From the NCBI GenBank assembly GCA_028817035.1, contig JAPPQH010000015.1:1895-65894 (forward strand): 64,000 nt of DNA. Reading direction: 5' to 3'. Positions 36,953-45,111 of this stretch are shown here, one piece after another (position 1 is the first letter of the stretch; the number at the start of each line of letters is the position of its first letter). The notes under the pieces were generated by a model. That model was not told where the DNA came from. It worked only from the letters and a program-made list of their open reading frames with translations, and searched no databases. The translations under genes and the position numbers were made by a program. This DNA comes from Candidatus Campbellbacteria bacterium (GTDB lineage: Bacteria > Patescibacteriota > Minisyncoccia > Phycocordibacterales > JABAAK01).

Positions 36953-37495
36953 ATGAATACAATAAATCAAAAACTAAAAGAATCTTTCAAGGCAATAGGG
37001 AAACAGAGAAATCTGAAAAACCCAATGCAAGCCTTCAAACTGGAGAAAATAGTCATCTCTGCAGGTGTTGGTCGTGTGAAAGACAAGTCACGCATAGAAC
37101 TCATACAAGACCGCCTCGCAAAAATAACAGGATACAAACCAGTTCCGTGTGCCGCAAAAAAATCAATCGCATCTTTCAAACTCCGCCAAGGCGACATAAT
37201 AGGATACAAAGTAACACTAAGAGGAAAAGCAATGGAAGACTTTCTTGAGAAATTTATAAACATAACACTCCCACGAAGCCGTGACTTTCGCGGAATAACC
37301 CCAAAAGGCATTGACAAAGCAGGCAACCTCACAATAGGGATACAAGAGCACATAATCTTCCCAGAAACCTCAAACGAAGAAGCAAAAGACATATTCGGAC
37401 TCGCAGTAACACTTGTTACAAACACAACAAACCACGAAGACACAAAAGCATTCCTAACCTACCTCGGCATCCCCTTTAAGAAAGACACTGCCTAA
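36953..37495 (+). CDS. rplE: 50S ribosomal protein L5
   Basis: Order and similarity. Confidence 0.9.
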   Translation: MNTINQKLKESFKAIGKQRNLKNPMQAFKLEKIVISAGVGRVKDKSRIELIQDRLAKITGYKPVPCAAKKSIASFKLRQGDIIGYKVTLRGKAMEDFLEKFINITLPRSRDFRGITPKGIDKAGNLTIGIQEHIIFPETSNEEAKDIFGLAVTLVTNTTNHEDTKAFLTYLGIPFKKDTA

Positions 37496-37516
37496 AACAA
37501 GGGTTATAATATAATC

Positions 37517-39505
37517 ATGCAAAAAACCACTGCATTATTACTTGTCGCTTTTTTATTATTAGCCCAACCATCTATTTCAGTTCAAGCACAAGTACCAATC
37601 GTCCCATCCCAAACACAGACACCAGTTGTCCCAATCCAAGAGACACAAGTTGTTGAACCCCAAACATGGGCACCAGTCGTTCCAGCACAAACTCAGCAAG
37701 AGAAACAATCCGCTGATGATAAAGAAGATGAAATACCAGTCATCCAAAAAGAATGGACTGATGATGAACTTGTTAATGAAGCACCGATATATAGAACAAA
37801 CGATAGAGAAGATTATGAGGAAACATTAAGTTTAGAAAGAGAAGAAGAAGATGAACGAAGGAGAGAGGAAGAAGAATATGAAAAGTGGAGAGAAGAAAGA
37901 GATAGAGAAGAGGAAAACGATGGCTCAGTTGAGTTGACCATTAAGGATGCAGAAAAGATTTTCAAATCACTTTCTGTGGAAGAAAAGCATAGTGGAAAAA
38001 TAGAGGCCATAGAAAAAATTGTTCAAAAAATAGTTGATAAAACTCATGCCAGAGAAAGCAAGGATGTTGTTATCGTGTACAACGAGCCAAAGGATATAAT
38101 ACGACAAATTGAAGAGATGCTTAGTGAAGAAATACTGGAGAATATAGAAAGAGTGATTTTTGAATGGCAAACAAAAACCATCGGCAGAGGACATATTGAA
38201 ATTGGTCGAGATGCTTTTATATTAACTAAATACTATAGAAATGGAAAAAAGATGTCAGAAAAACACTATGGTTATCTAGACCAAGTGCCTTGTCCATGGA
38301 GAGAATGGTATGAGGACGGTCAAATATCTAATGAAATGCTTTGTTTTCCGAAAAAAATTCAGAAAGTGTATTTTAAGAATGGAGAATTGCAAATTAAGAG
38401 AACGCTTATTGAAGGCAAATTTAAGGAGGAGTGGTGGTATGAGAATGGGCAAATAAAAGAAAGGTTTGATGGTGAGTTGAGAGAGGAGTGGTGGAGGTCT
38501 AGACCTATAACAACACGGGTTGAAAGAAATCTGAAGTTAGAGCGGTGGTATAAAGACGGACAATTGGCAAGAAAAACTGAAAACGGTGTCACCAAAAGAT
38601 GGTATCAAAATGGACAACTAATGTCGGTGGGAGAAGAGGTTGAAAACGAAGTTACTCAATGGTTTGAAAAACCCAAATATACCGAGTGGTATGAAAATGG
38701 TTCTATTCATATAATAAAAAATGGTGGTATAACCAAATCATGGTATCCTAATGGTGAAAAAAAAGTTGATAAAGTTTCTGATGAAAAAAAATCAAGATAT
38801 GAGTCGTGGTGGGAAAATGGAAATAAAAAAGAAGAATCAATTGAGAAGATTGCACCAGATGGAAGGTGGCATGATAATCTTAAATGGTGGTGGGAAAATG
38901 GAAATTTAAGAACATCAGAATTTAGAATAGACAACGAAACATCTCGAATCAAAGAATGGCGTCAAGATGGAACTCCAAAATATGAGGCAGATTGGGAAAA
39001 AGGTTTTACAAAGATATGGTATGAAAAAGGACAAAAATCATCAGAGACACAATTTCTTGCCATAAAAAAGCCATCAGGGATATTAGATAAAGAAAATTTA
39101 AAAATTATTATGGCAATGTATTGGTATAAGAATGGCAAGAAATTGGCTGAATTTAAAGATGGAAAATTGCAAGTTTGGAATATGTTGGGAATAATTATGA
39201 ATGGACTCCAGGCCAAGAGGCGCTTTTGTGAAAAAGATGCTCATTGGGTTGAGAGATATGGGTATTATGAATGTGATGGATGGGGAGGTCCAGATAATCT
39301 TAGTTGTGAACAAATCAATGGCAAAGTTATCGGCTACCATAATGGTTGCCGTTGCAGAGGTGAAGACTGCCTCGGTAAAACATGCCAAGCAGCAGTAGTA
39401 TATTCCTGCCAAGTGCAGAAAATTGAGCAACCTAAAAAGATTTTGATGATACATAAATTGAGAAACACAAACCCTTTAACTACATCACTGCCTACAACAT
39501 TTTAG
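37517..39505 (+). CDS. Secreted repeat protein with four parts: signal peptide, P/Q/V-rich and acidic E/R-rich linkers, at least 12 MORN-variant (YwqK-like, WYxNGQ) repeats, and a C-terminal Cys-rich module
   Basis: MQKTTALLLVAFLLLAQPSISVQA signal. Repeats EWYEDGQ, EWWYENGQ, ERWYKDGQ, KRWYQNGQ, TEWYENGS, KSWYPNGE, ESWWENGN, KWWWENGN, KIWYEKGQ, MYWYKNGK. Tail contains 10 Cys. Confidence 0.65.
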   Translation: MQKTTALLLVAFLLLAQPSISVQAQVPIVPSQTQTPVVPIQETQVVEPQTWAPVVPAQTQQEKQSADDKEDEIPVIQKEWTDDELVNEAPIYRTNDREDYEETLSLEREEEDERRREEEEYEKWREERDREEENDGSVELTIKDAEKIFKSLSVEEKHSGKIEAIEKIVQKIVDKTHARESKDVVIVYNEPKDIIRQIEEMLSEEILENIERVIFEWQTKTIGRGHIEIGRDAFILTKYYRNGKKMSEKHYGYLDQVPCPWREWYEDGQISNEMLCFPKKIQKVYFKNGELQIKRTLIEGKFKEEWWYENGQIKERFDGELREEWWRSRPITTRVERNLKLERWYKDGQLARKTENGVTKRWYQNGQLMSVGEEVENEVTQWFEKPKYTEWYENGSIHIIKNGGITKSWYPNGEKKVDKVSDEKKSRYESWWENGNKKEESIEKIAPDGRWHDNLKWWWENGNLRTSEFRIDNETSRIKEWRQDGTPKYEADWEKGFTKIWYEKGQKSSETQFLAIKKPSGILDKENLKIIMAMYWYKNGKKLAEFKDGKLQVWNMLGIIMNGLQAKRRFCEKDAHWVERYGYYECDGWGGPDNLSCEQINGKVIGYHNGCRCRGEDCLGKTCQAAVVYSCQVQKIEQPKKILMIHKLRNTNPLTTSLPTTF

Positions 39506-39520
39506 AAATACATTAACAAA

Positions 39521-40537
39521 TTGTGTAGTATAGAATATATGGCTATCTCACTGAAAGAAATAAATGCATTCAAGACAGAAGAAACAACACAGGAAATTAT
39601 AGAAATAAGCACTGAAAATGAATTAAAGGACGCCGTAACAAAACACCCAGACCACATAGTTTTGGGAAAGGGAACAAATACACTTTTTGTAAAAAACATA
39701 TTCATCCCTGTTTTAATAAACGAGTTTAAGGGAATAAAGATACAGGAAGAAGACAAAGAATCAATAACATATATCATCGGAGGAGGGGAAATATGGACAG
39801 ATGTTGTAGACAAAATGTGTGAGAAAAATCTTTGGGGATTGGAATATTTATCAGGAATACCAGGAAGTGCAGGCGCAGGAGTTGTAAAAAACATAGGGGC
39901 ATATGGATCAGAACTCTCTGACATATGTAAAGCAGTAAATGTATATGATAAAGAAAAACAAGCATTCAGAGAAATAAAATCAAAAGATTGTAAATTTGGC
40001 TACAGAACCAGCATATTTGAGAAGATGCCAAACCAATACATCATAACAGATATTGTAATTACGATACAGAAACAAAACAAAAACGCAGAACAACAATTCC
40101 TCATCAACACGAGAAACAGAGGTGTGGGTACTCCAAAAGCATATACGCCAATAGAAATATCAAAAGAGATAACAAAAACAAGAAACAGAAAACTTCCATC
40201 CCCAGAAACAAGTCCAAACGCAGGAAGTTTTTTCAAAAATCCGATACTGAACGAAAAAGAGTCAGAAAATATATTACAAAAACATAAAAAATTAAAACAC
40301 TGGAAAACAGACGAGGGAACAAAATTTTCTGCAGGGGAGTTGATAGAATTGTGTGGAATGAAGGGCTATAAAGAAAAAACAGGAGCAGGAATATCAGAAA
40401 AACACGCATTAGTAATAATAAATAATGGAACAAAAAGGGGAAATGACATTTACTCCCTATCACAAAAAATACAAAAAGAAGTAAGCAAAAAATTTAAAAT
40501 AAACCTTGAGCCAGAAGTATCAATACACAAAGGTTGA
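39521..40537 (+). CDS. murB: UDP-N-acetylenolpyruvoylglucosamine reductase MurB
   Basis: FAD-binding N-domain and the LSGIPGSAGAGVVKNIGAYG / C-terminal SAGELIELCGMKG motifs. Confidence 0.8.
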   Translation: MCSIEYMAISLKEINAFKTEETTQEIIEISTENELKDAVTKHPDHIVLGKGTNTLFVKNIFIPVLINEFKGIKIQEEDKESITYIIGGGEIWTDVVDKMCEKNLWGLEYLSGIPGSAGAGVVKNIGAYGSELSDICKAVNVYDKEKQAFREIKSKDCKFGYRTSIFEKMPNQYIITDIVITIQKQNKNAEQQFLINTRNRGVGTPKAYTPIEISKEITKTRNRKLPSPETSPNAGSFFKNPILNEKESENILQKHKKLKHWKTDEGTKFSAGELIELCGMKGYKEKTGAGISEKHALVIINNGTKRGNDIYSLSQKIQKEVSKKFKINLEPEVSIHKG

Positions 40538-40591
40538 TATTCCCCCAGTTTTTGTGTATAATTTATGTGTAAATAATGATGTGAATATATT

Positions 40592-40756
40592 ATGGAAAAT
40601 TCAAACAAAAAATTAAATTACAATGCGACAAATAAGGTAGCAGACAATCAAACAAACACATTAACGCAAGAACAAATAAACGAAGTAATTAAATTTACTG
40701 CGGATTTTACTGTGAAAAAATATGGACACATCATTGAACGACTCTCAAAAGAATAA
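40592..40756 (+). CDS. 54-aa small ORF overlapping the start of the Doc-like gene by 35 nt. Candidate antitoxin (Phd-position) gene. Absent from the ORF track because it is under 60 aa
   Basis: ATG at 40592, TAA at 40754. Position and overlap are typical of type II TA operons. Its 3' end is part of the 57-bp direct repeat. Confidence 0.3.
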   Translation: MENSNKKLNYNATNKVADNQTNTLTQEQINEVIKFTADFTVKKYGHIIERLSKE

Positions 40757-40757
40757 T
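40701..40757. repeat. 57-bp direct repeat, copy 1 (left boundary of the island inside the ribosomal operon)
   Basis: gattttactgtgaaaaaatatggacacatcattgaacgactctcaaaagaataatat is identical at 44607-44663. Confidence 0.9.
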
Positions 40758-41204
40758 ATCAAGTTTCTTACAGAAAAAATTTTATTGGGTTTGTATGAAG
40801 CAGAATATGAAAAGGAGTATCTAACCTCCATATTCGGTGAATTTTTGCCAACTGAAAAAGAAAAATGGGTAAAAGAAATGGCTTCTATAATGTCAACCGT
40901 AGAAACAAGAAGCAATTTTTGCAATATGTCTTTAGATGAGGCAGTCGCTCGTGTCATGTTTTGCATAATAAAAGGACACAAACTTGTTGATGGAAACAAG
41001 CGATCTTCCATTTTGTGCATGGTGGGTCTGTATGCCCTAAACTTATATGTTTCAGATAAAGGTGTCGGCAACAAAGAGAGATTTACATTTGATCCAGAAT
41101 CCTTGTATCACAAGGTCAAGGAAATCGCTGCGCTTGACTCCCAAACAATAGATGACGAAAAAGTTATAGTTGATTTAACCGAGTTTCTAAAAACAAAAAA
41201 ATAG
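40722..41204 (+). CDS. Fic/Doc-family protein (death-on-curing-like toxin)
   Basis: Doc/Fic motif HKLVDGNKRSSIL (Hxx(D/E)GNKR). 160 aa. Confidence 0.65.
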   Translation: MDTSLNDSQKNNIKFLTEKILLGLYEAEYEKEYLTSIFGEFLPTEKEKWVKEMASIMSTVETRSNFCNMSLDEAVARVMFCIIKGHKLVDGNKRSSILCMVGLYALNLYVSDKGVGNKERFTFDPESLYHKVKEIAALDSQTIDDEKVIVDLTEFLKTKK

Positions 41205-41269
41205 GGACTTGTAATTTTAGGAAATCTTTGATATCATTTCCCTATTGTATCTAATATAAAAACTAATAT

Positions 41270-42034
41270 ATGGACAGTAATTTTGCCTATAAAATTAATA
41301 ACTTCATATTTACCCCCTGGTATGCTTTTTCTGCTTTTATATATAAGCGTTTTTCAAAAATTATATTAATTCTTTCTTTTCTGTCTTTCTTTTACCTTTT
41401 ATTTACAGGTCATTTTATAGAAATAGTTCTAGTACTGGTTAGCTCAATTCTTGTAGCACCATTACTTACTTTTTTATTAACAGAAACTTTTAATTTTATT
41501 ATTTTTACAAAAGAAGAAAGAAAATGTATGAAAGACTTTCAAAAAACATTTGCCAAATCAAATGTTACAGAACATTATAGCGGTTTTGCGCCAACTATTC
41601 CAACAGAAGCAGACGAGAAACTTTCTAGATTTCCAAAATATAAAATTTCACTTGTCGCAACAAGTGGCATACTCATTTCTTTGGTGGTTGTTTTGATTTT
41701 ATATACCGGATTATTGGGTTATTTTTCTAACACCAGTTTTTATAATGGGATAAATGTAATGCAATTGAACTATGCATTAATTTTTGTATTATATTTGTCA
41801 GTTGATTATCAAAGATTACTGTTAGAAATTTTTTATTCACATCTGCCCCATCTTTATCCCAATACAAGGTTTCTATTTCCTTTTAAAATAATTTTAATAT
41901 TGTTCTTGTGTGTAGTAATTTTTTTGGGTATAAGTTTATCATACACATCGTTTCTTTTGGGTGGTTCATTATTAATTTTAATGTTCTCTTTGACAATGTT
42001 TTTTAGCGATACTTCTTATATCGCAAAGTTATAA
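41270..42034 (+). CDS. hypothetical polytopic membrane protein
   Basis: About 6 hydrophobic segments. No family recognised. Confidence 0.45.
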   Translation: MDSNFAYKINNFIFTPWYAFSAFIYKRFSKIILILSFLSFFYLLFTGHFIEIVLVLVSSILVAPLLTFLLTETFNFIIFTKEERKCMKDFQKTFAKSNVTEHYSGFAPTIPTEADEKLSRFPKYKISLVATSGILISLVVVLILYTGLLGYFSNTSFYNGINVMQLNYALIFVLYLSVDYQRLLLEIFYSHLPHLYPNTRFLFPFKIILILFLCVVIFLGISLSYTSFLLGGSLLILMFSLTMFFSDTSYIAKL

Positions 42035-42076
42035 AGAAGCCAAATTGACCTTTTGCAATAACAAAAACACCAACCC

Positions 42077-42117
42077 AAAATAGCACAGTTGCAATTTTTG
42101 GCGTGGTTTGGTATCAT
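42077..42117 (+). promoter_or_regulatory. sigma70-like promoter element (TTGCAA-17-TGgTATCAT), copy 1, upstream of the 81-aa ORF
   Basis: -35/-10 spacing read directly. 39 of 41 bp identical to the element upstream of rpsN (44703-44743). Confidence 0.45.
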
Positions 42118-42148
42118 TTTTATCGCATTTGATACAGGCTAAAAACCT

Positions 42149-42394
42149 ATGGACAACAATCTCAACACAAAAGAAGAAATAATGGAAGAACTTGAAAAAC
42201 AGGGCGGAGAAATGAAAATAGGAATTAATAATAGTGAAAAGGAATCTATGGATAAATTTAGGGGGTTGCTTGATGAGTTAAACGATAAAATAACATATGA
42301 TGAAGGACCTTATATGCATATAGGTATTGGTAATGTGAATGACCCAGAACGATTTCCAGCCATTACTGAATTTTTTATCAGAAGGATAAAATAA
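42149..42394 (+). CDS. hypothetical protein (81 aa, acidic)
   Basis: ORF with a promoter-like element upstream. Confidence 0.35.
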   Translation: MDNNLNTKEEIMEELEKQGGEMKIGINNSEKESMDKFRGLLDELNDKITYDEGPYMHIGIGNVNDPERFPAITEFFIRRIK

Positions 42395-42427
42395 AAATAT
42401 GGACCTTTGTTTTGAGATATTGATTAT

Positions 42428-43552
42428 ATGAAAAGAAAAATTTTAGACTCAATTTGTGTTATTAATGAAATATTAGAGAAAAATCCTTTTAAACCAGAAA
42501 GTTCGTCGGGAAGTTGGAAACACAACACCACAGAAATAAATAAAGAAATTAAAAGATTAGGACTTGAAAATAATATTATTTTTGAAAAAAATACTTTCAC
42601 CATAAGAAATTTACACTTTAAAAGGGGAGGAGTACTTGCATTTAATAATAGTTATTTAATATCAATTCACTTTGAAAATAATATATTTGAGTGTGAGAAG
42701 GATGGTGCGGGTGTCAATATATCAGCAACTAATGCTCAAATTACATTTAAGAATAATTCTTTTAAAGAAAAGTTTCTTGAATTATTTATAGCTTCTATGG
42801 GTTGGCGAATTTCTTTTGTGAATAATTCTTTTAATAACTCATCATGTGGTATATTGACTGATCCATCTTTTTCTTCCAATGAAAAAAAACAAATTGGAAA
42901 TATAAAAATTGACTCAATAGTTTTGAAGCATAATAAATTTGAAAGCTTTGATTTATATGCAGGTAGTGGAAAAATAATTAAAGAAGTTATAGGCAGAAAA
43001 AATACCTTCCATGATTTTGGTATAGACGATGTTTCTAAAATAGATTACATATCTTTTTCCACAGATAATAAATTTATCCTAGAAGGTAAAAGGGAATTAG
43101 AGATTGACAGACTAAGAAGGACATTCGCAAAACTGAAATCAAAAAGTATAGAATCCAATTTTACGATAGAGGCTAATGACTTTAATGCCATAGAACTGGA
43201 TATTTATAGAAGAAATCCTAACCGTATAAAATTTGGAGATAAATTTTTATTATATATAGAGAAACATGTGAGCAACTTTAAAACTTCTTGGATTTCAGCA
43301 ATGGTATGGCTTCTAATAGTTAATACTGTAATTTATATTATATTAATAATACTTTTGGGGGAGTTTCATATAAATCTTAATTTATGGTTTACGTCACTAG
43401 ATCCACTTGTAAATTTAAATAGTTATCTAAAAGAAAAGGGCTATGAGCATTTTAATCGTGATTATATTTCCCATATTGACTTTATTAGAAGGATATTCAT
43501 TTTATTCTTTGCATACGAAATAATAAAATCCTTTAGAAAGTTTTCTAGATAA
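42428..43552 (+). CDS. hypothetical protein with N-terminal N/F-rich beta-helix-like repeats and one C-terminal TM helix
   Basis: Repeated xNNxF motifs (FENNIF, FKNNSF, VNNSFNNSS). Hydrophobic MVWLLIVNTVIYIILIILLG. Confidence 0.4.
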   Translation: MKRKILDSICVINEILEKNPFKPESSSGSWKHNTTEINKEIKRLGLENNIIFEKNTFTIRNLHFKRGGVLAFNNSYLISIHFENNIFECEKDGAGVNISATNAQITFKNNSFKEKFLELFIASMGWRISFVNNSFNNSSCGILTDPSFSSNEKKQIGNIKIDSIVLKHNKFESFDLYAGSGKIIKEVIGRKNTFHDFGIDDVSKIDYISFSTDNKFILEGKRELEIDRLRRTFAKLKSKSIESNFTIEANDFNAIELDIYRRNPNRIKFGDKFLLYIEKHVSNFKTSWISAMVWLLIVNTVIYIILIILLGEFHINLNLWFTSLDPLVNLNSYLKEKGYEHFNRDYISHIDFIRRIFILFFAYEIIKSFRKFSR

Positions 43553-43633
43553 TTTGATATAATTAACCCATTGTGTAATAAAAACCAATTATATGAACCT
43601 TAAGAAAATCTTACAAAACACAAAACCGACATA

Positions 43634-44014
43634 TCAAACCTGTCTTTCGTGGTTTGGGTCTATGTGGGTTACCATACAAAATTGCTCACATTGGATGCCA
43701 AATACCCTAAAGTTTTGGTTTATCCTAAAATGAAAGGGTCTGCCCAATTCTCTATCTTCTGCACTGTCTATCGCATTACGAATTTCACTTTTCATATGGC
43801 CCTTATCAATAGTTATGCCCCCATGCGCCCTATCCTTTGCCGCCCATTGTTTCCATGTTTGTCCATTTATTTCCTCCAACTTCTTAAAAATGAGTTTTAA
43901 ATTGATGACAAGCTGTTTTTTATTGGTTTTATCATTTGCCTTAAAATATCTGAAACTAAACACAACCTTATCCTCGGTGTGACTAGGCAATACCTTACTA
44001 CCAAAATCACCCAT
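43634..44014 (-). CDS. hypothetical protein downstream of and co-oriented with the Panacea-domain gene. Candidate toxin partner
   Basis: Only 3 bp separate it from the upstream Panacea gene. No recognisable fold. Confidence 0.4.
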   Translation of the reverse strand: MGDFGSKVLPSHTEDKVVFSFRYFKANDKTNKKQLVINLKLIFKKLEEINGQTWKQWAAKDRAHGGITIDKGHMKSEIRNAIDSAEDRELGRPFHFRINQNFRVFGIQCEQFCMVTHIDPNHERQV

Positions 44015-44017
44015 ACC

Positions 44018-44533
44018 CTACTCTATACTAAACACATCTCTATAATAATTTTTTATAGACTCATTTGATATTGGAATATGTTTCTTTCCTTCTTCATAGA
44101 CATCCTTCCATGGCTTGTGCTTGTGTGTTATATCAACAAGTTCTCTTGCAGAATATTTATCAAATATTTCTAAAGTTTTTTCCACTACCCATATAGTTTC
44201 TTCATTAAACTTATCAACATCACATTTTTCATTTGGTATCACACCTGCACCATTACTTTTGTATTCTTCGTAAACACTGTCTACGGCAGGTCCGTGCTTC
44301 CATGCCTCTATTGTTTCAGAAAATAGTGGTTTGTCATATCTTACTAATGATATAGCCTGAGCAAAGTATAGAAACTTAAGCAGTTTCATATTTGTTATAT
44401 CGTTTAAATCTTGGTCTTTCTCATAAGATTTACAAATAAACAACCTTGCTATATCAACTGCACTTGCTTTGTTAGAAAGTGTGTCCATATTTATTAAATT
44501 ATTATACACCAAAAGAGCAATAATCGCCAACAA
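44018..44533 (-). CDS. Panacea-domain (DUF4065, SocA-like) putative antitoxin
   Basis: Core KLLKFLYFAQAISLVRYDKPLFSETIEAWKHGPAVDSVYEEYK matches the DUF4065 signature (KLQKLLYxAQ...W..GPV). Confidence 0.65.
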   Translation of the reverse strand: MLAIIALLVYNNLINMDTLSNKASAVDIARLFICKSYEKDQDLNDITNMKLLKFLYFAQAISLVRYDKPLFSETIEAWKHGPAVDSVYEEYKSNGAGVIPNEKCDVDKFNEETIWVVEKTLEIFDKYSARELVDITHKHKPWKDVYEEGKKHIPISNESIKNYYRDVFSIE

Positions 44534-44606
44534 TCGTCATACAAACAGAGGGTATAAATATGTAGGGGAATAAGTAAAAATTGGGTTAATTTTTGATATT
44601 CTCTTT

Positions 44607-44663
44607 GATTTTACTGTGAAAAAATATGGACACATCATTGAACGACTCTCAAAAGAATAATAT
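44607..44663. repeat. 57-bp direct repeat, copy 2 (right boundary of the island). It carries a truncated copy of the Doc-gene start
   Basis: Exact copy of 40701-40757. Confidence 0.9.
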
Positions 44664-44702
44664 ATAGCCTATTAGGGCAGAAAAATAAAAGAGGAAGGCT
44701 GA

Positions 44703-44743
44703 AAAATAGCACGGTTGCAATTTTTGGCGTGGTTTGGTATCCT
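44703..44743 (+). promoter_or_regulatory. sigma70-like promoter element copy 2 (TTGCAA-17-TATCCT) about 100 bp upstream of rpsN. It is followed by a 12-bp palindrome ttgacttgtcaa
   Basis: Near-identical to 42077-42117. Confidence 0.45.
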
Positions 44744-44841
44744 TTAACCTATTGACTTGTCAATCTATGGGATGCTCCCTGTATTCTGATATAGAGAAGA
44801 TTTCATACGATATTGCTTGTCATAATAAAAATCGCGAGAGT

Positions 44842-45111
44842 ATGGCGAGAAAATCACTTATAACAAGAAACGAAAAAAGAATAAAGTTGGCGAAAAAATA
44901 CGAGAAAAAGCGCAAAGCATTAAAGGCGGCTAATGATTACATTGGTCTACAAAAACTTCCAAAAAATGCTTCGCCTGTTCGTATTCGTAATCGTTGTTTC
45001 ATAACCGGCAGGTCGCGGGGTTATCTTCGTGCTTTTGGAATTTCAAGGATATGTTTTCGCGAGGAAGCACGCAAGGGTAATCTCCCAGGAGTAAGAAAAT
45101 CATCATGGTAG
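44842..45111 (+). CDS. rpsN: 30S ribosomal protein S14 (long type)
   Basis: [24 protein letters not shown]...[24 protein letters not shown]. Confidence 0.85.

Follow-up and report, generated by a model that had tools for sequence, protein, structure and literature searches.

A Panacea-linked gene pair of the PanAT kind in a Candidatus Campbellbacteria genome, with a partner protein predicted to adopt a RelE/ParE fold

Introduction

Toxin–antitoxin (TA) pairs built on the Panacea domain, in which a PanA antitoxin gene adjoins the gene of its PanT partner, have been recognized in silico by a gap of no more than 100 nt between the two genes, by the recurrence of this architecture in many species, and by the lack of a longer conserved operon around it (Kurata et al. 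2022; PMC8832971). The PanAT pairs assayed by these authors are reported to form stable complexes and to show type II behavior, and direct neutralization by a stand-alone PanA has been demonstrated by mutagenesis for B. choladocola and has also been reported for G. mesophilus (PMC10440598). Here we describe a gene pair of this kind, panA and a panT candidate of 126 amino acids (aa), from a metagenome-assembled genome (MAG) of a Candidatus Campbellbacteria bacterium. The DNA analyzed, referred to throughout as the window, is a 64,000-nt stretch of contig JAPPQH010000015.1 (positions 1,895 to 65,894), and all coordinates are those of the window. The 126-aa product is entered at NCBI as “hypothetical protein” (OXU73_02500).

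The closest described proteins belong to PanT cluster T1, the first and apparently the largest in Dataset S1 of Kurata et al. (2022, PNAS 119:e2102212119; PMC8832971), where the T1 rows give the name “hypothetical protein,” the antitoxin gene first, and a PanA without an N-terminal domain. Members of T1 include proteins of Salmonella phage vB_SemP_Emek (YP_006560566.1) and C. cadaveris (WP_074844970.1), as well as that of M. agalactiae 5632 (WP_013022263.1), which is entered with its PanA as a pair. The T1 proteins that were assayed carry the label “mRNase” in Table S1 of the supporting information (SI) to the same paper, which is the only source of this label.

Organization of the pair and assignment of PanA

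Both genes lie on the minus strand of the window, and the features of the pair are as follows.

44018..44488, minus strand: panA, a stand-alone Panacea (DUF4065/SocA-like) antitoxin gene, probably 156 aa from the ATG at 44488, with its TAG stop at 44020-44018.
43634..44014, minus strand: panT candidate, 126 aa, recognized by its homologues, substitution rates, AlphaFold2 model, and profile matches.
44015..44025, minus strand: panA-panT junction, ...GAG TAG GGT ATG, as read from the sequence.
44501..44530, minus strand: promoter-like TTGGCG-N18-TATAAT, 10/12 matches in a consensus scan, its end lying 12 nt before the ATG of panA.

The assignment of PanA to the Panacea domain, made by profile comparison, is solid. 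Its 156-aa form matched Pfam SocA_Panacea (PF13274) over residues 36-128 (E 2.2e-20), the score of 74.1 bits exceeding the cut-off of 25.7; the protein also matched phrog_1281 with an E value of 3e-47, and it scored 72.8 bits (E 2.6e-20) with the NCBIfam SocA_antitoxin model NF047745, for which the equivalog cut-off is 190. As Panacea is the domain of SocA, this last match would suit a SocAB-like type VI arrangement, in which PanA, as an adaptor for proteolysis, hands the toxin over to ClpXP instead of inhibiting it by binding. We consider such an arrangement very unlikely: the score falls far under the equivalog cut-off, the partner is unrelated to SocB (cluster T10 of Kurata et al.), and stable complexes are reported for all of the PanAT pairs that those authors assayed (PMC8832971).

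An initial annotation of this locus had described PanA as a 171-aa protein. Its open reading frame (ORF) and its domain are present as described, whereas its length is probably 156 aa. The mechanical ORF does reach a TTG at 44533, yielding 171 aa; the real PanA most likely runs from 44488 to 44018, and the TTG-started version is probably too long, because the orthologue on a related contig (L001) is also 156 aa and because a conserved -35/-10-like block ends 12 nt upstream of the ATG. When the intergenic regions of the window and L001 are compared, only this block (44530-44501) is conserved, the rest having diverged; promoter-like sites in the region were not more frequent in the consensus scan than in shuffled sequence. 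If it serves as a promoter, the panA leader would be very short.

The partner ORF is co-oriented with panA and begins 3 bp downstream of it, as the initial annotation had stated: three nucleotides (GGT) separate the panA stop codon from the panT ATG at 44014, and a purine-rich stretch, GAGTAGGG, precedes this start. At homologous loci the two genes are separated by 3-13 nt or overlap by 8 nt. The layout of the junction suggests that panA and panT are translationally coupled. Among the sequence strings picked out in the initial annotation, KLLKFLYFAQ, WKHGPAVDSVY, and GGITIDKGH are all present, while the motif given as RFRINQ... in fact reads HFRINQNFRVFG (PFHFRINQNFRVFG).

Conservation of the partner gene and of the pairing

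HMMER, run exhaustively over 1.84 billion representative proteins, returned 14 relatives of the 126-aa protein, 84-154 aa in length. Further relatives, mostly from Patescibacteria (Taylor-, Kaiser-, and Saccharibacteria, and Paceibacterota), came from indexed searches and from GTDB genomes that were scanned, and homologues of 125-157 aa were found in at least 33 loci. Comparison of the toxin by tblastn with phage and plasmid records yielded either nothing or matches attributable to chance, and viral contigs, when scanned, yielded none. For panT the ratio of nonsynonymous to synonymous substitution rates (dN/dS) was 0.07 between the window and L001 and 0.15 between a second pair of loci (L002 and L003); the corresponding values for panA were 0.06 and 0.05. 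The 126-aa ORF is a real gene, and both genes are under purifying selection. The possibility that this frame is non-coding, which the initial annotation had raised, or is a chance ORF is rejected on the basis of the conservation and the dN/dS values.

The pairing was scanned with two hidden Markov models (HMMs), one built from the toxin alignment and the other from Pfam-verified PanA proteins. A Panacea ORF lay directly upstream, and on the same strand, in every one of the 31 full-length toxin homologues (31/31; loci L001-L032), and the same order recurred at two additional, more distant loci, L034 (Dadabacteria) and L035. The neighbors around the pair are unrelated between loci, and the mobile unit is therefore the two-gene module. 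Each feature by which Kurata et al. (2022) define a PanAT pair in silico is found at the window, namely a Panacea domain, a same-strand gap (3 nt), and a conserved pairing. The initial proposal of a Panacea (DUF4065) gene paired with a candidate toxin is thus upheld by the PF13274 match, by strict co-conservation, and by the in-silico definition of PanAT.

Other arrangements of Panacea genes were also seen. At L006 (3265-4682) the order is PanA-toxin-PanA, with the second Panacea gene close to the pair, and at L035 (1934-4992) a second PanA is encoded 1.7 kb downstream, beside DUF1902 genes. A cyanophage, Cylindrospermopsis raciborskii virus RM-2018a (L043; MH636380.1, 88556-89521), encodes a PanA homologue that is followed, about 180 nt downstream, by an annotated CRISPR array instead of a toxin gene.

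Predicted fold and conserved residues of the partner

When supplied with a 15-sequence alignment, AlphaFold2 modeled the 126-aa protein with a predicted local distance difference test (pLDDT) score of 86 and a predicted template modeling (pTM) score of 0.80; a run with a 2-sequence alignment gave a pLDDT of 52 and was unusable. The modeled secondary structure comprises a strand, beta1 (18-20), helices (32-90), and a beta-meander (92-99, 102-109, and 112-120), and the protein is predicted to have a RelE/ParE fold, built from a strand at the N terminus, a layer of helices, and an antiparallel meander of three strands. In a Foldseek comparison with the PDB, ranks 1-32 were all toxins of the RelE/ParE superfamily (HigB, archaeal RelE, YafQ, YoeB, HP0894, GraT, HigB1/2, RelK, and the Cami1 RelE-like domain), with target-normalized template modeling (TM) scores of 0.45-0.60, each match being weak alone (best E 0.086, probability at most 0.89). 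The description of this protein as having no recognizable toxin fold is not supported by the model and its structural matches.

Conservation in the family is focused on the meander, with the motif FHFR(I/V)..FR(V/I)FG(Y/I)Q....F.ITHIDPxH. R103, G106, and D119 do not vary across the family, nor does H95 among its close members, and R97 and W54 are almost invariant; the conserved His, Arg, and Asp residues (H95, R97, R103, H117, D119, and H122) map on and just after the modeled meander. In RelE-type mRNases, it is the meander region that holds the catalytic Arg, Lys, His, and Tyr residues. Alignment by hhalign of the family profile with HigB, YoeB, and RelE, represented by approximate query sequences, was not significant; the local matches obtained, which offer a hint on register only, place FHFRI..FRVF on the beta2-beta3 hairpin in all three.

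The Foldseek matches do not separate subfamilies, and ParE belongs to the same fold class, so the partner might have the RelE/ParE fold and yet be a ParE-like gyrase poison, or have some other non-RNase activity. We judge this improbable, as the best structural matches are mRNases (HigB, RelE, YafQ, and YoeB) rather than ParE, and as the conserved His, Arg, and Asp residues on the meander and at the C-terminal end are reminiscent of those that HigB, YafQ, and YoeB use for catalysis. At the level of clusters, T59 and T60 are listed as ParE-like PanTs, which favors a ParE-like activity, whereas T1 carries the mRNase label, which does not (Kurata et al. 2022).

Single-sequence searches of the 126-aa protein against Pfam, PDB, PADLOC, and PHROGs returned nothing or sub-threshold matches only, and isolated matches with E values near 0.08, to phrog_1213 (“RelE-like toxin”) and to toxin_DhiT, were each given by a single family member. 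A PADLOC match to NsnC (E 0.007) was discarded, as no other evidence reproduced it, and the PDB profile searches with three family alignments (A2, A3, and A7) yielded matches to SIMPL, RGP1, a designed protein, and 27 residues of Rv1546 (E 0.5-2) that were judged to be due to chance.

Relation to cluster T1, the MAG6450 family, and phrog_8366

All of the family members tested (22/22) matched the NCBIfam model NF046006, “MAG6450 family protein” (best E 2.5e-12), and all except one (21/22) matched phrog_8366 (best E 1.8e-11); function is uncharacterized in both. The window protein scored 23.2 bits with NF046006 (E 7.5e-5), below the curated cut-off of 40 bits, and the Prokaryotic Genome Annotation Pipeline (PGAP) would therefore not name it a MAG6450 family protein; P0007, a 30% identical member of the same family, passes this cut-off with 42.1 bits. 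MAG6450 itself is a “conserved hypothetical protein” of Mycoplasma agalactiae PG2, and from names and species only we infer that it is the T1 PanT of M. agalactiae.

A direct connection to T1 came from two comparisons. The family profile (A6) aligned by hhalign with the Emek T1 PanT (YP_006560566.1) over 105 columns with a probability of 95.8% and an E value of 7.2e-9, and an hmmsearch with the family HMM gave 36.5-42.7 bits for the proteins encoded downstream of PanA in Emek, E. coli phage EC.P3, and Pseudomonas phage CF60a. Because of this homology, we place the window protein, on profile evidence, as a divergent, mainly Patescibacteria/Candidate Phyla Radiation (CPR) branch of the superfamily that holds T1, the MAG6450 family, and phrog_8366.

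The initial annotation had suggested that the partner may be a new toxin family, and had proposed structure prediction and remote homology as a check on the 126-aa protein. The outcome, a RelE-like model together with the match to the Emek PanT, runs counter to that suggestion, as does homology to the MAG6450 family and to phrog_8366. Two results would still speak for a genuinely new family with a new fold, (i) the lack of any Pfam or PDB sequence match and (ii) the retrieval, at the single-family level, of only 14 representatives among 1.84 billion proteins. Set against the homology to MAG6450_fam, phrog_8366, and T1, and against a confident model that consistently resembles RelE-type toxins, they leave this explanation largely refuted and highly improbable. 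These comparisons place the partner in a new branch, mainly of Patescibacteria, within the known PanAT kind, and not in a new toxin family.

Proposed mechanism

We propose, with a probability of roughly 0.6, that panA and panT form a PanAT-type (type II-like) module in which a RelE-fold PanT inhibits translation by cleaving mRNA and is neutralized by direct binding of PanA. The two genes would be co-transcribed from the promoter-like site (44530-44501) just upstream of panA, and panT would be translationally coupled to panA across the 3-nt junction. Free PanT would cleave mRNA, probably on the ribosome, and thereby stop translation; PanA would neutralize it by direct protein-protein binding through the Panacea core. 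This proposal builds on what is established above, namely the domain identity of PanA, the reality of both genes and the selection on them, their strict pairing, the homology to T1 and MAG6450, and the class of fold that is predicted. That PanT is toxic, that it is an RNase and depends on the ribosome, how PanA neutralizes it, and that the promoter functions are inferred.

Several points weigh against a type II mRNase module. SI Table S1 of Kurata et al. (PMC8832971) scores the C. cadaveris T1 PanT as toxic to E. coli and as not neutralized by its PanA, and it scores the T1 proteins from E. coli MOD1 and phage Emek as non-toxic in that host; with three members assayed, one toxic but unrescued and two non-toxic, no T1 pair is a validated TA system. 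The phage T1 proteins lack H95 and R103, having A/S and A/P at these positions, and these residues are consequently not universal in the superfamily. Moreover, neither the 126-aa protein nor its family gave any sequence-profile match to RelE, ParE, HigB, or YoeB in Pfam, PDB, or PADLOC: in Pfam, no match at E ≤ 1 was returned for any of the 15 sequences in alignment A2, and 10 further relatives gave none at E ≤ 5.

The same assays lend support to another explanation, in which the pair is a conditional system (e.g., one for phage sensing or abortive infection, with Panacea as the sensor), or the partner is a non-toxic regulatory or accessory protein that becomes active only after a specific trigger. 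A sensory role for Panacea has been proposed (Ernits et al. 2023), the family is found on prophages and phages (phrog_8366), and genes resembling defense or TA genes neighbor the pair at L005, L010, L034, and L035. Conversely, the phage proteins that proved non-toxic are those without the H95 and R103 of the window's close family, and their lack of toxicity may not transfer to it; the strict antitoxin-first order and the gaps of 3-13 nt are typical of canonical type II systems; and an RNase effector would itself be compatible with a conditional role in defense. Taken with these points, we regard a conditional or non-toxic role as a possibility, albeit an unlikely one, and retain the mRNA-cleaving type II module as the preferred explanation.

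The presence of H95 and R103 in the window's branch and their absence from the phage proteins may explain why T1 proteins have behaved inconsistently in toxicity assays. A stronger version of this idea, which we hold to be doubtful, is that the Patescibacteria branch, with His95, Arg103, and Asp119, is the catalytically active form of the T1/MAG6450/phrog_8366 superfamily, or that it acts only upon a trigger sensed by Panacea. If so, the active branch might carry an active site of its own on a scaffold like that of RelE, and a trigger-dependent version could be, for instance, a defense module in ultra-small symbiotic bacteria; otherwise, panAT would be an ordinary accessory TA module. The analysis extends T1, the largest and still unvalidated group of Panacea-associated toxins, into bacteria of the CPR, and provides that group with a confident, if predicted, RelE-type structural model.

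Genomic context

The pair lies within a 7.3-kb non-ribosomal segment (37496-44841) that splits the S10-spc operon between rplE (36953-37495) and rpsN (44842-45111). The GC content of this island is 0.27-0.35, compared with 0.36-0.43 in the ribosomal genes, and panAT is on the strand opposite to that of the other island genes, which are as follows.

37496-44841, island genes other than panAT, opposite strand: a 662-aa secreted MORN_2-repeat protein, MurB, a Doc-like gene, a 254-aa membrane protein, and two unknown proteins of 81 aa and 374 aa.

The adjacency of rpsN and panA is shared by the window and L001, which comes from a related organism, and in two related genomes rpsN adjoins the pair; the nucleotide identity between them is 92% for the S8/S14 genes and 83% for panAT. 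This shared adjacency indicates that the panAT module is not a very recent arrival.

A 77-nt direct repeat is present at 40703-40779 and 44607-44683, of which the first ~58 nt are identical (exact copy at 44607-44664). The repeat corresponds to the 5' untranslated region of the Doc-like gene together with its first 13 codons (MDTSLNDSQKNNI); the second copy, which then runs into a stop codon, lies between panA and rpsN and is absent from the syntenic contig L001. Between them, the two copies bracket a 3.9-kb segment containing the Doc-like gene, three unknown genes, and panAT. We read this direct repeat, together with the 43-nt promoter-like one described next, as the marks of past rearrangement.

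A promoter-like sequence, TTGCAA/TTGTAA-N17-TATCAT, is also repeated, at 41197-41239, 42077-42119, and 44703-44745, upstream of three plus-strand genes, one of them rpsN. Over 43 nt, the copies that start at 42077 and 44703 agree at 95% of positions. Such near-identity suggests that a promoter was duplicated during insertion of a cassette.

The Doc-like gene, located within 40592-41204, encodes a 160-aa Fic/Doc-like protein with a Pfam Fic match (E 5.6e-5), a match to TIGR01550 (DOC_P1) below cut-off, and the motif HKLVDGNKR. A 54-aa ORF (40592-40756) without a Pfam match overlaps the start of this gene by 35 nt, and the two may constitute a second, Phd/Doc-like TA pair in the island.

Comparison with known systems

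The partner resembles the RelE/ParE mRNA interferases (HigB, RelE, YafQ, and YoeB) in its predicted beta-alpha-alpha-beta-beta-beta topology, in its position as the second gene of a two-gene module, and in the basic, His-rich character of its beta-meander and C-terminal end. It differs from them in that its family has no detectable sequence-profile similarity to these toxins, in that it exceeds them in length by some 30-40 residues and has additional helices between alpha1 and beta2, and in that its antitoxin is a Panacea protein, compared with RelB, HigA, DinJ, or YefM in RelE/ParE interferase modules.

Combinations of Panacea with RelE-like or “mRNase” partners are already catalogued in Dataset S1 of Kurata et al. 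(2022), as clusters T1, T14, T28, T59, T60, and T76. Of these, T14 is entered as HigB-2-like and T59 as ParE_toxin, and the entries for T14, T28, T59, T60, and T76 list no experimental validation. These five clusters are given HHpred probabilities of 70-99.7% to structures of RelE, HigB, or YoeB, unlike the window family, for which the searches made here gave no such signal at the sequence level. The survey behind the dataset was based on RefSeq and, as it is listed there, includes no CPR genomes other than two Saccharibacteria with T14.

T1 is the nearest of these groups. The window protein is only 13-14% identical to the phage members of T1, and the two branches differ in their ends: the window's CPR branch (125-136 aa) has invariant H95 and R103 and terminates in ITHIDPxH, whereas the phage proteins (L036 1877-2362, which is Emek, and L039 and L042) terminate in WLDREFxLYxH. 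Like T1, the partner is encoded directly downstream of a PanA without an N-terminal domain, at a gap of a few nucleotides, and falls within a size range of ~105-160 aa. The profile homology between them spans essentially the whole domain, and both share an FSF strand, an L..KL...TW helix, and an FR...G(Y/I)(Q/R)....F.I..(I/W)D meander.
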